Made by a program: the position numbers and the translations under genes. From a virus (taxonomy: Duplodnaviria > Heunggongvirae > Uroviricota > Caudoviricetes): a stretch of DNA of 15,459 nucleotides. Positions 9,510-13,460 of this stretch are shown piece after piece; position 1 is the stretch's first letter; every line of letters begins with the position of its first letter. The stretch lies in IMG/VR virus record IMGVR_UViG_3300033148_007488, positions 64,001-79,459 of that record; one strand, 5' to 3'. Under the pieces are notes generated by a model. It was not told the DNA's origin. It searched no databases and saw nothing but the letters and a program-made list of their open reading frames with translations.

Positions 9510-11006
9510 ATGAAGTACTTAAAATTATTATTAATCATTGCAGTACTATTTACCATTTCTTGCACTGAGACAAAAGATACTGATGATTTAACGGCTGAAT
9601 CAGATTCCACGACTGATACTGAATCAGATTCCACGACTGATATTGAATCAGATTCCACGACTGATATTGAATCAGATTCCACGACTGATATTGAATCAGA
9701 TTCCACGACTGATATTGAATCAGATTCCACGACTGATATTGAATCAGATTCCACGACTGATACTGAATTAGAAGCGAATATGTGGGCATTAAACTATAAA
9801 AACCTGACAGGAAAATTTCAAGATGGGCCTTGTCTTGCCGGAGCTATAGTAACAGTAAAACCTCTCAATGATAGTTTGAACCAAGTACTAGGGTATTATA
9901 TCAGCGAAACTGAAAACGATTTTGGCTACTATGATTTACCTGTTGAGCTGACAGAAAATTATGCTGAAGTATTTGCCGATGCCATATGCCATAATGAGAT
10001 CACAGGTGGGATAATGGTTCAAAAAAGGTTAAGCGCAATTATAGACTTAAATGCTGGTGAATCAAACAATATAACACCGCTAACTACTATCAGGACATCG
10101 GTTGCTAGGAATTTATTTGATTCAGGACATGGAACGGCAGGAGATTCATTATTAGAAGCTGAAATTCTGATTCTTGAATATATGGGAATGCCTTCTTTAA
10201 ATACAAGATTTACTGATATGACGCTTGAAGATGGAAATCAAGCTGATTCCGTTCTCTTAGCTGTTAATTCTGCGTTACTTCTTAACCGGACTGAGGCTGA
10301 ACAGATTGATTTCATGCAAAAAATAGCTTCTGATATTAATTCAGGAACAGATATTTACAGATCCGAGTTTTTGCAAAATATTATTGATATTCCACTTTTG
10401 CAGGTCAAGTCAAACCGTGAGGCCAGATATGAAAGTTTAGGACACAACATGAATGTCCCACCATTTTGGGAGGTTACTGGGGCTCCTAATTATTTCTCAG
10501 ACCTTCTTGAGCGTGATCCAGTTGTTCAAAGTTCTTTTAACTTGGATGACACAGGGTCTTGTTCATTTGATCAGCCAACATTCAACGTTTTTGCAATTCC
10601 GTACGTTTTTACTTCAGGGATTGAGTCCAGTAAATATATTGCTTTAAATCTACAAGGTGGTGATATCTCGATCTGGACACGAGACTCAAGCAATGATGTT
10701 CCTGAAACTAAACTTGTTGATATCGAACAACTAAACGAACTGCTTTTGACAAGCCCTGTAACGCTACCTTACAACGGAATGTTACCAGATAACCATGGAT
10801 TAGAATCCGATACAGACTATTATATCGTGATTAGCAGTGATACAGATTTTACATTATCCACATCTTGCGGTACGGTTGAGCCATTCTTTTTACCATTCGG
10901 CAGAAAATTGGCAAAAGATGAGAGTGGGACTAATGCTTGGGAAGGGAACCTGAATAATACGTCATGGTGGAGAAAATCAGGCGTTAAGGTGTTCACTACA
11001 GATTAA
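9510..11006 (+). CDS. Large surface lipoprotein with acidic Ser/Thr repeat linker
   Basis: The ATG at 9510 has a GAGG RBS (9501-9504) and begins MKYLKLLLIIAVLFTISC (signal peptide II, lipobox TISC), giving 498 aa. After the repeat, GKFQDGPCLAGAIVTV...CHNEITG...NNITPLTTI resembles the 'QKGPF...NEVTG...NVNxLT' domain of Fibrobacter/Bacteroidota lipoproteins (from memory). Confidence 0.75.
   Translation: MKYLKLLLIIAVLFTISCTETKDTDDLTAESDSTTDTESDSTTDIESDSTTDIESDSTTDIESDSTTDIESDSTTDIESDSTTDTELEANMWALNYKNLTGKFQDGPCLAGAIVTVKPLNDSLNQVLGYYISETENDFGYYDLPVELTENYAEVFADAICHNEITGGIMVQKRLSAIIDLNAGESNNITPLTTIRTSVARNLFDSGHGTAGDSLLEAEILILEYMGMPSLNTRFTDMTLEDGNQADSVLLAVNSALLLNRTEAEQIDFMQKIASDINSGTDIYRSEFLQNIIDIPLLQVKSNREARYESLGHNMNVPPFWEVTGAPNYFSDLLERDPVVQSSFNLDDTGSCSFDQPTFNVFAIPYVFTSGIESSKYIALNLQGGDISIWTRDSSNDVPETKLVDIEQLNELLLTSPVTLPYNGMLPDNHGLESDTDYYIVISSDTDFTLSTSCGTVEPFFLPFGRKLAKDESGTNAWEGNLNNTSWWRKSGVKVFTTD
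9597..9764 (+). repeat. In-frame tandem repeat, 7 x 24 bp (GAATCAGATTCCACGACTGATAYT), encoding ESDSTTD[T/I]
   Basis: Read directly: units start at 9597, 9621, 9645, 9669, 9693, 9717 and 9741. Units 1 and 7 end ACT, units 2-6 end ATT; no spacers. Confidence 0.98.
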
Positions 11007-11010
11007 AGCA

Positions 11011-11039
11011 CCCAACCTTTTCTTTTTTTATAGGTTGGG
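11011..11039. terminator. Candidate terminator hairpin between convergent lipoprotein and antirepressor genes
   Basis: CCCAACCT (11011-11018) and AGGTTGGG (11032-11039) form an 8-bp perfect stem. The 13-nt loop is long and the flanking U-tracts are poor. Confidence 0.4.
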
Positions 11040-11077
11040 GAATAAATTATTTCAGGGTTATATTTTGGCTTATTTAA

Positions 11078-11737
11078 TTAAAATTGAAGCTGTCCTGCTG
11101 AAAACACGGCACTTATTATTTTGGTTAATCTGGTTTGACCTTTTCCTGTAACCATTATCTTATGAGCTGTTTTTTCTTCTCTCCTTCCATTAAGGTAAGG
11201 AACCTTTTTAACTTCAAATAATCCTTGATCCATCCACTTTTGATAAGGTTTATCGCTGTCCATCAAATATTTTTGGTCATAGAAATATTTAAACAGTCTG
11301 TTCTGTCCTATTTTCACGCCTTTTTTGTTGAGTAATCTGGAAAAATCAGCAACAGAGATTGAGTCTTTGCTTACTTCAATGTGGTTAACAAACTCAATCT
11401 TTGGTTGGGCTTCTTTTAGTTCCAATGCCTGATCTTCTACTTTTCGTTTTAATTCATCAATTTCTTCATTGAGGAATCCCATTGCTTGCTGAACAAGTAA
11501 TGTCTTTTCAAGCTTTGTTTTTGGTAGCTGGACAGAAGTGTCAAGGTGTTTATTTTTATCAAGATCCAGCTTGATCAAAGTTACTTCTTTCTCATCAAGA
11601 AGTGTCTGTTTCCCGTTTTTGATTTTATTAGGGAATAATTTGTTTACGTATCTCGTAATAGTCCTTGAATTAACTCCAAGAGAAAATGCTATTTCAGAAA
11701 CAGACATTAAGTCTTTCATGTTTTTAACTAAATCCAT
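11078..11737 (-). CDS. Phage antirepressor, N-terminal HTH plus C-terminal ANT/KilAC domain
   Basis: HTH-like MSVSEIAFSLGVNSRTITRY; coiled coil; AQPKIEFV...SISVADFSRLL...IGQNRLFKY...PYQKWMDQGLFEVK...VTGKGQ is the ANT/KilAC signature. AAGGA SD (11744-11748) 6 nt before the ATG. Confidence 0.9.
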   Translation of the reverse strand: MDLVKNMKDLMSVSEIAFSLGVNSRTITRYVNKLFPNKIKNGKQTLLDEKEVTLIKLDLDKNKHLDTSVQLPKTKLEKTLLVQQAMGFLNEEIDELKRKVEDQALELKEAQPKIEFVNHIEVSKDSISVADFSRLLNKKGVKIGQNRLFKYFYDQKYLMDSDKPYQKWMDQGLFEVKKVPYLNGRREEKTAHKIMVTGKGQTRLTKIISAVFSAGQLQF

Positions 11738-11759
11738 TTTTAATCCTTTTAAATTGAAA

Positions 11760-11849
11760 AATCCCAGCCATCAAGAGGTTGCAGAGTAAAAAAAACGATG
11801 TTTTTAATACACTCTCAATGGCTGGGATTAATCATCGTTTAACTCTGCA
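11760..11849 (-). promoter_or_regulatory. Structured 5' leader of the antirepressor with two overlapping long helices
   Basis: On the - strand RNA, 11842-11849 pairs with 11780-11787 (8 bp), 11833-11840 with 11793-11800 (8 bp), and 11812-11829 with 11760-11777 (18 bp including two G-U pairs). Confidence 0.65.
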
Positions 11850-11962
11850 TGATCAGATTGCCATGCCAACCCAATAAAAACAAGTTCCATTTTACCAAAC
11901 ACAAAAATAATTGATATATTCAAATCATCTTTTATTTAATCAAATAATCTATGGGGTTTATC

Positions 11963-12616
11963 ATGAAAAAAATATTGTTTTTGTCTCTTTTGATATCTAT
12001 GTTCTCTTTCAATGTTTTTGCCGGGATGGGGGATTCTTATAATAATTTAACCGAAAAATTGAGTGAAATGTCAAGCCCTAAAGGTGGGGAAGTTTGTTTG
12101 GATGATGGAACAGGTGTAGTCAGAAAAACGAACAGGAGAACATGGGAACTTGGATTCAGAGAGAATCTGTTTGACACTCCAAATGGGGGATCTCCTGCAT
12201 TCAGAACAGAGAATTTAGATCTTACTGTATACCATAATATGTCCAATTTTTTTCATGCTTACATTACATATGGACACAGAACAGTAGAAAAAAATAGCTA
12301 TGAAGGCCAAGAGTTTGCGGATGAATGGCAGAATAGACATTTCTATGGGGGATTCGGGATTTATCTTAAACCCAATATTTCAATTTATGGTGGCGTTGGA
12401 AAGATATGGGCTCAAGATACAGATGGGAATGAACCTGAAATTAGAACGGCTGTTGAAAAAGGTCTTGCTTTCGATCTGCCAATATGGGGGAATAAATTAA
12501 GACTTGAATACCGTATCGTAGATGCGCCAATGTCCGGTGAAAACATCTCTATTGAAGAATCCACTGCTGATGCCGGATTTTCTGCGTTATCAATTTCTTT
12601 TGTGGTCGGAATATGA
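11963..12616 (+). CDS. Probable 8-stranded outer-membrane beta-barrel protein
   Basis: The ATG at 11963 (GGGGT at 11953-11957) gives signal peptide MKKILFLSLLISMFSFNVFA. Eight alternating amphipathic segments follow (TWELGFR, LDLTVYH, FHAYITYG, HFYGGFGIYL, ISIYGGVG, VEKGLAFDL, LRLEYRI, LSISFVVGI) with short turns and long polar loops. The last residue is Ile rather than the usual Phe. Confidence 0.65.
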   Translation: MKKILFLSLLISMFSFNVFAGMGDSYNNLTEKLSEMSSPKGGEVCLDDGTGVVRKTNRRTWELGFRENLFDTPNGGSPAFRTENLDLTVYHNMSNFFHAYITYGHRTVEKNSYEGQEFADEWQNRHFYGGFGIYLKPNISIYGGVGKIWAQDTDGNEPEIRTAVEKGLAFDLPIWGNKLRLEYRIVDAPMSGENISIEESTADAGFSALSISFVVGI

Positions 12617-12963
12617 AAACCTTAATTTTGATTGTTGGTATTTTCATTTTTCCTTTAACGGCTAGTGCGCTTTGGGGATATGGAGAAAAAGAAGAAGTTA
12701 AAATTAAAGAGCCTGAAAAACCTTCAATTTGCCATTATTCCATAGATATTGGCAAAGGAGTTTTATTTATTTTTCAAGGTGGATGTGAAGAATTTAAACA
12801 TGTTGGGATCATAGATGTCAGGAAAAACAAGATCATTATTCTTGATGACTCTTTAGAAAAAGAGTTTGATTCTAATTTTACAACTCCTAACGCTAGAGCC
12901 GATTTTACTGAAAAGAAATGGAAAGGTCTGACTCCTGTAAAATATGGGGATATTAAGGATTAG
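12613..12963 (+). CDS. Small exported protein of unknown function
   Basis: ATGA overlap with the barrel gene; signal peptide MKTLILIVGIFIFPLTASA (AxA site); two Cys in the mature part. Confidence 0.65.
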   Translation: MKTLILIVGIFIFPLTASALWGYGEKEEVKIKEPEKPSICHYSIDIGKGVLFIFQGGCEEFKHVGIIDVRKNKIIILDDSLEKEFDSNFTTPNARADFTEKKWKGLTPVKYGDIKD

Positions 12964-13460
12964 ATATTTTTCCAGCTCTTCTTATCCCACGGGAATCGTT
13001 TATCCAAAAGACTGTGAACGATAAGTCCTAAAGAAAATCCTTGAATCAAGATGTAATTTCTGGTCACAAAATCTGAAATAATTAATCCCCATGGTGGCAG
13101 CACGAAAACCACAAAATGCATGATATTTGGCAGAAAGAAGAGAATAACAGCCAACCAATAGGAATGTGTCCAGCCACGGTGGGTTGATATCTTAGCAGCT
13201 AAAAAAGGTACTAGCGGGAACCAGATATATTCAGGAGTTCCAACATAATACCAATAACCAGATGCGATTAAAAGACCAATAGCGTAATATCTTGAAGGGA
13301 CGGATTCTGTATCTGTATCGGGGAAGTTCCCTCCTAAAACAACCCCTATCATAGCCGATAAAATATCACTGAAAGATGCCTGTATTTTAAGTAAATATGT
13401 TAAGATAGGGATGGTTGCTGATACTGCCGTTGCACCTATTAAGTGTCCTTTAAATAGCAT
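12960..13460 (-). CDS. YdjM-family membrane-bound metal-dependent hydrolase
   Basis: Family motifs in order: N-terminal GH, GxxFPDxD (GGNFPDTD), HRGWTHS and HSLLD, within several hydrophobic segments. Confidence 0.85.
   Translation of the reverse strand: MLFKGHLIGATAVSATIPILTYLLKIQASFSDILSAMIGVVLGGNFPDTDTESVPSRYYAIGLLIASGYWYYVGTPEYIWFPLVPFLAAKISTHRGWTHSYWLAVILFFLPNIMHFVVFVLPPWGLIISDFVTRNYILIQGFSLGLIVHSLLDKRFPWDKKSWKNI

Follow-up and report, generated by a model that had tools for sequence, protein, structure and literature searches.

Immediately upstream of an antirepressor-type gene, the last 15.4 kb of a 79.5-kb virus record in the IMG/VR database (IMGVR_UViG_3300033148_007488) encode a real, conserved, and uncatalogued structured RNA leader with a built-in terminator. 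This stretch, 15,459 nucleotides (nt) at its full length, is referred to as the window, and positions are counted from its first letter. The interval 11757-11849 on the minus strand is best explained as encoding the ∼95-nt 5′ leader of the antirepressor mRNA. It is built from two interleaved helices, P1 and P2, of which the second has the features of an intrinsic terminator. We consider that the leader probably works as a transcription attenuator, in which P2 is the intrinsic terminator and P1 forms first and competes with it. Among the readings weighed below, this putative two-state attenuator is the best supported. An initial annotation of the window had interpreted the leader as an RNA switch that gates expression of the antirepressor, and this interpretation is supported in part: the conserved RNA structure stands, and a pairing proposed with the Shine-Dalgarno (SD) region is not supported.

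Antirepressors determine whether a prophage remains silent, and a dedicated RNA restrains each of the few that are well studied (those of P22, P1/P7, and N15). The leader described here adds an uncatalogued RNA solution to antirepressor control and may take part in the decision between lysis and lysogeny. Its design is unusual in that the helices proposed to compete are without common bases, the terminator loop is the pairing partner of the 5′ end of the same transcript, and the geometry is strictly kept, all within an element that is small (∼95 nt) and self-contained.

Anatomy of the Leader

The gene behind the leader is predicted, from similarity of its product to known families, to encode an antirepressor-type protein of 219 amino acids (aa). 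The KilAC match scores 75.2 bits against a Pfam cutoff of 25.3 and spans residues 106-208, and the protein also matches PHROG 63/130/9438, annotated as anti-repressor Ant. The parts of the leader and the gene, in the order in which they would be transcribed, are:

11833-11849, minus strand: 5′ strand of P1, made of B (11849-11842), a 1-nt bulge, and C (11840-11833)
11830-11832, minus strand: connector L1, 3 nt
11812-11829, minus strand: 5′ arm of P2 (A), the 5′ half of the terminator stem
11801-11811, minus strand: spacer L2, 11 nt, AU-rich
11780-11800, minus strand: 3′ strand of P1, made of C′ (11800-11793), a 5-nt U bulge, and B′ (11787-11780), within the P2 loop
11778-11779, minus strand: connector L3, 2 nt
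11760-11777, minus strand: 3′ arm of P2 (A′)
11757-11761, minus strand: terminator U-run, the first two U pairing with the base of P2
11744-11747, minus strand: Shine-Dalgarno-like AGGA
11737-11735, minus strand: start codon ATG of the antirepressor gene
11078-11737, minus strand: antirepressor-type gene, 219 aa, with a helix-turn-helix (HTH)-like N terminus and a KilAC domain (PF03374, E = 6e-21)

Read base by base on the minus strand, P1 and P2 interleave directly upstream of the KilAC antirepressor gene. P1 consists of 16 Watson-Crick base pairs (bp) in two 8-bp blocks (11849-11842 with 11787-11780 and 11840-11833 with 11800-11793), with bulges of 1 nt and 5 nt on opposite sides between them. 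P2 consists of 18 contiguous bp (11829-11812 with 11777-11760), two of which are G-U pairs that become C-A mismatches if read on the plus strand. The two helices have no nucleotide in common; their strands are ordered 1-2-3-4 and pair 1:3 and 2:4. The initial annotation had described the same coordinates, pairings, G-U polarity, connectors, and U-run, all of which are correct to the base.

Related Leaders Share Geometry and Differ in Sequence

Protein searches yielded a small set of homologues, all from uncultured phages. Eight further leaders with the order of elements seen in the window precede antirepressor genes that are 32-64% identical in protein, where L004 and L005 are counted as one leader and the contigs of the closest protein homologues, P0002 and P0005, fall outside the leader set. 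In this common order, a promoter is followed by the 5′ strand of P1, which coincides with the predicted start of the transcript; next come the 5′ arm of the terminator, a spacer of 10-15 nt, the 3′ strand of P1, and the 3′ arm of the terminator, and the series closes with a U-run, SD, and AUG. Seven leaders are canonical (those of the window, L004, L019, L012a, L142, L018, and L012b) and two are variants (L141 and L015). The genes behind the eight other leaders are of the KilAC type, with HTH-like, pRha, or AntA N-terminal domains; the leader of L018 precedes a gene that combines pRha with KilAC, and the AntA-type gene behind L012b has a Pfam match to the AntA domain only.

Across the canonical leaders, P1 has 16-18 bp and P2 has 17-21 bp, and the segments between them are held to narrow ranges (L1, 0-4 nt; L2, 10-15 nt; L3, 0-2 nt). 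L004 and L142 have one extra outer pair in P1. In all nine leaders, a U-run follows P2 and 17-22 nt separate the end of A′ from the AUG.

Geometry is thus fixed, and sequence is not. The length of L2 is kept without its sequence, and helix sequences are nearly wholly different between lineages. The recurring parts are helix ends only: the outer end of P1 keeps UGC...GCA, and the apex of P2 keeps AAGAG/CUCUU, a sequence that would adjoin the base of P1. A box that opens P1, UGCAnAGU, recurs with covariation in L012b, L018, and L012a. P1 sequences differ wholly between phages and between the two L012 copies, yet they match within each copy. These two copies (L012:1369-1470 and L012:2172-2266) lie on one metagenomic contig with two tandem antirepressor-type genes (KilAC and AntA), each behind its own leader copy with different P1 and P2 sequences.

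Folding, Covariation, and Covariance Models

The arrangement of P1 and P2 in the window is not a product of chance. The 141-nt leader region folds at -43 kcal/mol (z = -4.8 relative to 200 dinucleotide shuffles) into a minimum free energy (MFE) structure that contains P2. The P1 duplex has an energy of -19.9 kcal/mol versus -9.5 ± 2.5 kcal/mol for dinucleotide-shuffled loops, with 2 of 2000 shuffles as good. Against shuffled loops, P1 is significant in the leaders of the window, L004, L019, L012a, and L142 (each p ≤ 0.003).

The leader structure has a sense-strand polarity. The sense strand gives a better fold than the antisense strand in eight of nine leaders, the fold of the plus strand being worse by 8.6 kcal/mol in the window, and the 25 G-U pairs across the seven canonical leaders are all mismatches on the opposite strand. 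Together with the covariance models described below, G-U polarity and sense-strand folding bear out the earlier view of the leader as an RNA-level feature on the antirepressor transcript.

Covariation was measured on a MAFFT alignment of three leaders (L004, L019, and L018; alignment A3) and on helices anchored at their ends; the MAFFT alignments that take in every leader (A2 and A8) are out of structural register and were used for inspection only. In A3, which is unbiased, 92% of cells pair versus 40-49% when partners are slid by 1-3 columns, and 14 pairs are changed on both sides, nine of them in P1, versus 0-3 in the slid controls. When helices of 7-9 leaders are anchored at their ends, an arrangement in which columns do not represent strict homology, columns with compensatory change number 6/8 and 8/8 for P1 and 7/8 and 9/9 for P2. 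Both helices that the initial annotation described are conserved among homologous leaders with compensatory changes.

Covariance models, one for P2 and one for P1, were built from L004, L019, and L018 only. Both match the window at exactly 11750-11852 on the minus strand (E = 3e-4 and 0.04 for the P2 and P1 models, respectively), and both score the antisense strand far lower than the sense strand. The models also revealed the second leader copy in L012 (L012b), which had previously been unseen.

A custom scanner was used to search both strands of 2.3 + 2.5 Mb of fetched phage loci for a long-loop terminator with an upstream strand that pairs with the loop across short connectors. At a stricter cutoff, every match is an antirepressor leader. 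At a looser cutoff, the matches also include six near-identical contigs, which form one unrelated group, and four other loci (L244, L178, L258, and L255). The layout is close to specific for antirepressor leaders. The unrelated group (L259, about 1580-1673; also L257, L261, L276, L279, and L280) has a GC-richer leader with the same 1:3/2:4 interleaving, in which a terminator-like 13-bp stem is followed by a U-run, the loop pairs with an upstream segment, and L1 is 16 nt long; this leader sits between a T5orf172/MUG113 gene and a gene for a 292-aa protein, which is followed by a DnaB helicase (replication) gene.

The leader does not qualify for membership in any catalogued family. A cmscan of the whole window against Rfam 15 at gathering thresholds returned zero matches, and a scan of 11500-12100 with permissive filters (E ≤ 10) returned spurious matches to miRNA and snoRNA hairpins only. 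There was no covariance-model match to C4, c4-2, c4-a1b1, IsrK, or sRNA-Xcc1. The element is unrelated in sequence to c4, as had been proposed, and matches no Rfam family of the c4 type or otherwise.

Predicted Promoter and Terminator Signals

The best sigma70-like site upstream of P1 in the window consists of:

11878-11883, minus strand: predicted -35 hexamer, TTGTTT
11855-11860, minus strand: predicted -10 hexamer, CAATCT, TG-extended, separated from the -35 by 17 nt

This site predicts a transcript start at ∼11848, upstream of P1 and not downstream of 11810, the limit past which the initial annotation would have taken its interpretation as refuted. Its -35 block is conserved in the close relative L141; the spacer is not. 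Good candidate sigma70-like promoters are located directly upstream of P1 in L012a, L012b, L018, L004, and L142, with TTGAC(T/A), a spacer of 17-19 nt (17 nt in all but one of them), and a frequently TG-extended -10; the predicted promoters of L019 and the window are weaker. The end of the -10 precedes the opening UGC of P1 by 5 nt in each of the seven canonical leaders; in L004 and L142, it precedes the first paired base by 3 nt. Because the -10 is placed directly before P1, the RNA is predicted to begin with the 5′ strand of P1.

All nine leaders have the features of a terminator, in agreement with the earlier description of P2: a stem of 14-21 bp with a G/C-rich base, followed by 4-9 U. The terminator lies between the predicted promoter and the regulated gene, and P2 ends 17-22 nt before the AUG. 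No credible promoter was seen by eye between P2 and the start codon, and expression of the gene should therefore depend on read-through of P2.

A Proposed Two-State Attenuator

We propose the following mechanism. Transcription from a weak sigma70-type promoter would begin with the first bases of P1. P2, with its 18 bp and a U-run ∼20 nt before the AUG, would be an intrinsic terminator, and the antirepressor would be made only from read-through transcripts. The 5′-terminal 17 nt would pair with 16 nt inside the large loop of the terminator to form P1, which could form first because its 3′ strand is transcribed ahead of the 3′ arm of the terminator. P1 would then enclose the 5′ arm of the terminator in a closed loop and act as an antiterminator by delaying or preventing P2, the ground state that would win at equilibrium. 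Some factor, whether RNA, protein, or elongation kinetics, would set the balance between P1 and P2.

Stepwise folding is consistent with this order of events in part. Before A′ is made, P1 is the MFE structure in four of seven leaders (L004, L019, L012a, and L142), and once A′ is present, P2 is the MFE structure in all leaders, by 4-22 kcal/mol. The two helices should not both form fully because the stems extend over 1.5-2 helical turns and are joined by connectors of 0-4 nt; full coexistence would therefore require that the 3′ end be threaded through a closed loop. Connector lengths and topology thus predict that P1 and P2 exclude each other, at least largely.

Several observations weigh against the attenuator. 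The exclusion is steric or topological rather than a competition for bases, as no nucleotides are in common, and partial coexistence, of P2 with up to 8 bp of P1, may be possible. In the window, the MFE structure before A′ emerges is another local hairpin, in which B′ pairs with the 3′ end of A. The advantage of 4-22 kcal/mol for P2 means that read-through requires kinetics or a factor. P1 is weak or absent in L141 and L015, where it is not significant relative to shuffled loops. The loop of P2 (28-46 nt) is unusually large for an intrinsic terminator, and a standard terminator scan does not call P2 because that scan considers loops of 3-8 nt. The promoter of the window is a prediction only and a weak match (5/12 plus the TG extension). 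Finally, only nine leaders were found, all from uncultured phages.

As for what might set the balance, a riboswitch is unlikely because the unpaired parts are not conserved: no conserved unpaired segments that could represent a ligand core are present, as L2 and the bulges vary in sequence. Moreover, there is no Rfam riboswitch match in the window, no known protein-binding motif in the leader, and no regulator was seen as a constant neighbor of leader-bearing genes.

Alternative Explanations

One alternative, possible but improbable in our view, is a self-targeting immunity RNA. By analogy with P4 CI, N15 CA, and P1 c4, the terminated leader would be a stable small RNA, a one-hairpin version of these RNAs made of the P2 hairpin and its U-tail. 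C′-B′, displayed in the loop, would pair in trans with the 5′-terminal B-C of nascent leaders, block P1, and enforce termination at P2, and the result would be feedback silencing of the antirepressor with phage-specific (heteroimmune) pairing sequences. To the full form of this proposal we give slightly less credence still: a minimal, self-contained immunity RNA, in which a ∼95-nt transcript would be both effector (the terminator loop) and target (the 5′ end), act in trans, and have an origin independent from those of c4, CI, and CA. If trans action were true, the leader would represent an independent reinvention of P4/N15-type RNA immunity and a bistable, phage-specific switch on antirepressor expression, and it could serve as a compact, orthogonal, and programmable terminator switch.

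Consistent with trans action, C′B′ and its target BC are on one transcript, as are seqB and seqA of P4 (PMC4825925) and a′b′ and a1b1 of P1 c4. The P2 loop is AU-rich and mostly unpaired in MFE folds. P1 sequences are phage-specific yet internally matched, including those of the two L012 copies, as a specificity determinant would behave, and the best same-strand match of each P1 strand in the 79-kb record is its cis partner. However, the leader has no homology to the C4, c4-2, c4-a1b1, IsrK, and sRNA-Xcc1 models, and it lacks a second, downstream target near the ribosome-binding site (RBS); no other sites complementary to B-C or C′B′, near the RBS or elsewhere in the 79-kb record, exceed background. 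The terminated RNA would also keep its own B-C tail, which would titrate the loop unless processed off, and plain drift of a cis helix yields the same pattern of covariation.

Somewhat less probable again is a compact fold, in which P2 and all or part of P1 are present together, side by side in a pseudoknot-like bundle of two helices, or in which P1 preorganizes the distant arms of the terminator for its efficient formation. Such a fold would serve constitutive termination, protection of the 5′ end, processing by RNase III, or an action on RNA polymerase, and not antitermination. The geometry would suit two antiparallel helices: their lengths (16-18 and 17-21 bp) are close, the connectors at either end are near zero, the L2 of 10-15 nt is long enough to span one helix, and the conserved P2 apex AAGAG/CUCUU would sit beside the base of P1. 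Nonetheless, H-type pseudoknots with stems beyond one helical turn and connectors of 0-4 nt require threading, and threading of the 3′ end through a closed loop is unlikely while RNA polymerase holds that end. Furthermore, a plain terminator with a short loop is a far simpler route to constitutive termination than is such a bundle.

It is very improbable that the repeats act at the level of DNA (as an operator, a cruciform, or a recombination site), that an inverted repeat arose by chance next to an ordinary terminator, or that the region is part of a countertranscript attenuator of the kind found in pT181 and pIP501. The intergenic space is divergent with promoters on both strands, and inverted repeats are common as operator motifs. 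But in DNA, or on the other strand, A-C mismatches would take the place of the 25 G-U pairs, covariance models score the sense strand far above the antisense strand, and variation is compensatory without conservation of sequence. With regard to a countertranscript, there is no conserved antisense promoter-like site in the nine leaders: six have no site with at least 9/12 matches, and the other three have no consistent position. A chance repeat is at odds with P1 beating shuffles.

Least credible is translational control, in which the 5′ end of A (UUAAUCC) would sequester the SD region (GGAUUAA) when P2 is unformed, or, as a variant, a leader peptide would couple translation to termination: the 7-nt complementarity raised in the initial annotation is present in the window and has no counterpart in A of L004 and L012a, two relatives compared by eye, and a 20-codon open reading frame (11828-11890, minus strand) with its UAA exactly at the start of the 5′ arm of the terminator is without a counterpart in L141 and L004 and begins upstream of the predicted transcript start.

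Comparison with Known Systems

The functional kin of the leader are the RNA controls of antirepressor genes (P1/P7 c4, P22 sar, and N15 CA; PMC12197685) and leaders with a terminator and an antiterminator. Closest in layout is c4 of the P1/P7 immI region (Rfam C4, RF01695, c4-2, and c4-a1b1), which controls icd-ant. In both cases, the antirepressor transcript itself carries the RNA element, the loop of a downstream hairpin is complementary to a 5′ segment of the same RNA, and pairing is phage-specific with complementarity kept. A loop-displayed antisense segment facing an upstream target is present here, and the likeness to c4 and CI systems is one of layout by analogy, not homology. Unlike c4, which is a processed 77-nt RNA, the leader has one long hairpin that is an intrinsic terminator, and it lacks a target of the a2/b2 type over the RBS. 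Its apparent output is termination, whereas c4 blocks translation (PMC12197685).

The output is instead like that of P4 CI and N15 immA, where the leader of the controlled operon carries an antisense sequence together with its complement and transcription ends prematurely. Ravin et al. 1999 reportedly describe how CA RNA controls Pa-Ta in N15, the terminator Ta lying ahead of the antirepressor operon. The N15 genes under control include an antirepressor, as the title of that study, cited in PMC4488713, indicates. In P4 immunity, seqB of the CI RNA pairs with seqA and seqC to cause premature termination (PMC4825925). The leader has no sequence or model similarity to either system, and its antisense segment is in the loop of the terminator hairpin itself; for the leader, trans action and processing are hypothetical.

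Gifsy-1 IsrK likewise has a promoter-proximal terminator upstream of phage regulatory genes and two isoforms from one promoter, the short, terminated isoform acting in trans on the read-through isoform (PMC4825925). IsrK differs in that it activates translation of a downstream open reading frame; no such frame or target is seen here, nor is there an Rfam IsrK match.

Classical attenuators and riboswitch platforms have the same series of promoter, leader, intrinsic terminator, and gene, as well as an alternative helix that is made earlier and that, here, would compete with the terminator. They differ in that the alternative helix here uses no nucleotide of the terminator, the 5′ end pairing instead with the terminator loop (1:3/2:4), and in that a conserved ligand pocket, leader peptide, or known protein-binding motif is lacking here.

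In P22 immI (arc-ant and sar), a dedicated layer of control is also located directly upstream of ant. But sar is transcribed from the opposite strand and blocks translation, and in the leaders described here no antisense promoter is conserved. Several homologues of the antirepressor carry an Arc-like gene instead of the leader. In this second class (L006-L011 and L021), a small ribbon-helix-helix (Arc-like) gene overlaps the start of ant, and there is no RNA leader. In L006, for example, this gene (2365-2526; PF12651) lies behind a promoter in a layout like that of P22 arc-ant, as do its equivalents in L007-L011 and L021. One antirepressor gene family thus uses RNA or protein at the same position, which provides a natural comparison of two types of control.

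Genomic Context and Further Searches

Searches for further copies of the leader gave few results. None was found in 167 genomes of the phylum of the one homologue-bearing genome, and blastn of 11000-12700 against cultured phages returned no match; tblastn of the antirepressor protein returned relatives at no more than 36% identity. The exact 18-mer of P2 has two matches in IMG/VR, both chance matches in coding sequence. Among antirepressor leaders, three motif scans of IMG/VR (AAGAG..GCARCTCTT..T6; AAAAGCC..GCAA..GGGCTTTTT; ATCCCAG..CTGGGATTTTT) recovered the L019 contig only. When the UGCAnAGU/ACUnUGCAA boxes were used instead, an unrelated and highly conserved stretch of ∼90 nt saturated the scan; it is intergenic, contains an inverted repeat of 9-10 bp (TGCATAGTT ... 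AACTATGCA), and is present at L281:5109-5198 and ∼28 other IMG/VR loci.

The leader lies in a 213-bp space between the antirepressor gene and divergent genes on the plus strand (11951-12963), which encode a 221-aa protein with a signal peptide and a beta-barrel-like fold and an overlapping exported protein of 116 aa. These neighbors were considered as regulators and ruled out, as they are exported envelope proteins. A promoter-like site for the envelope genes (11891-11920, plus strand; TTTACC-18-TATATT, TG-extended) is located back-to-back with the predicted leader promoter, and both share blocks that are conserved with L141. A copy of the barrel gene with 81% identity occupies the same position in L141 (L141:2-780), beside a pRha-KilAC gene with a related leader. 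Because this copy adjoins a gene of the pRha-KilAC type, the promoter region and its flanking cassette move as a unit, whereas the N-terminal domain of the antirepressor is exchanged.

A gene for a YdjM-family inner-membrane hydrolase is located near the antirepressor gene in three otherwise different contigs (window, 12960-13460, minus strand; L004:127-585; L006:5082-5570). In Escherichia coli, ydjM is regulated by LexA.

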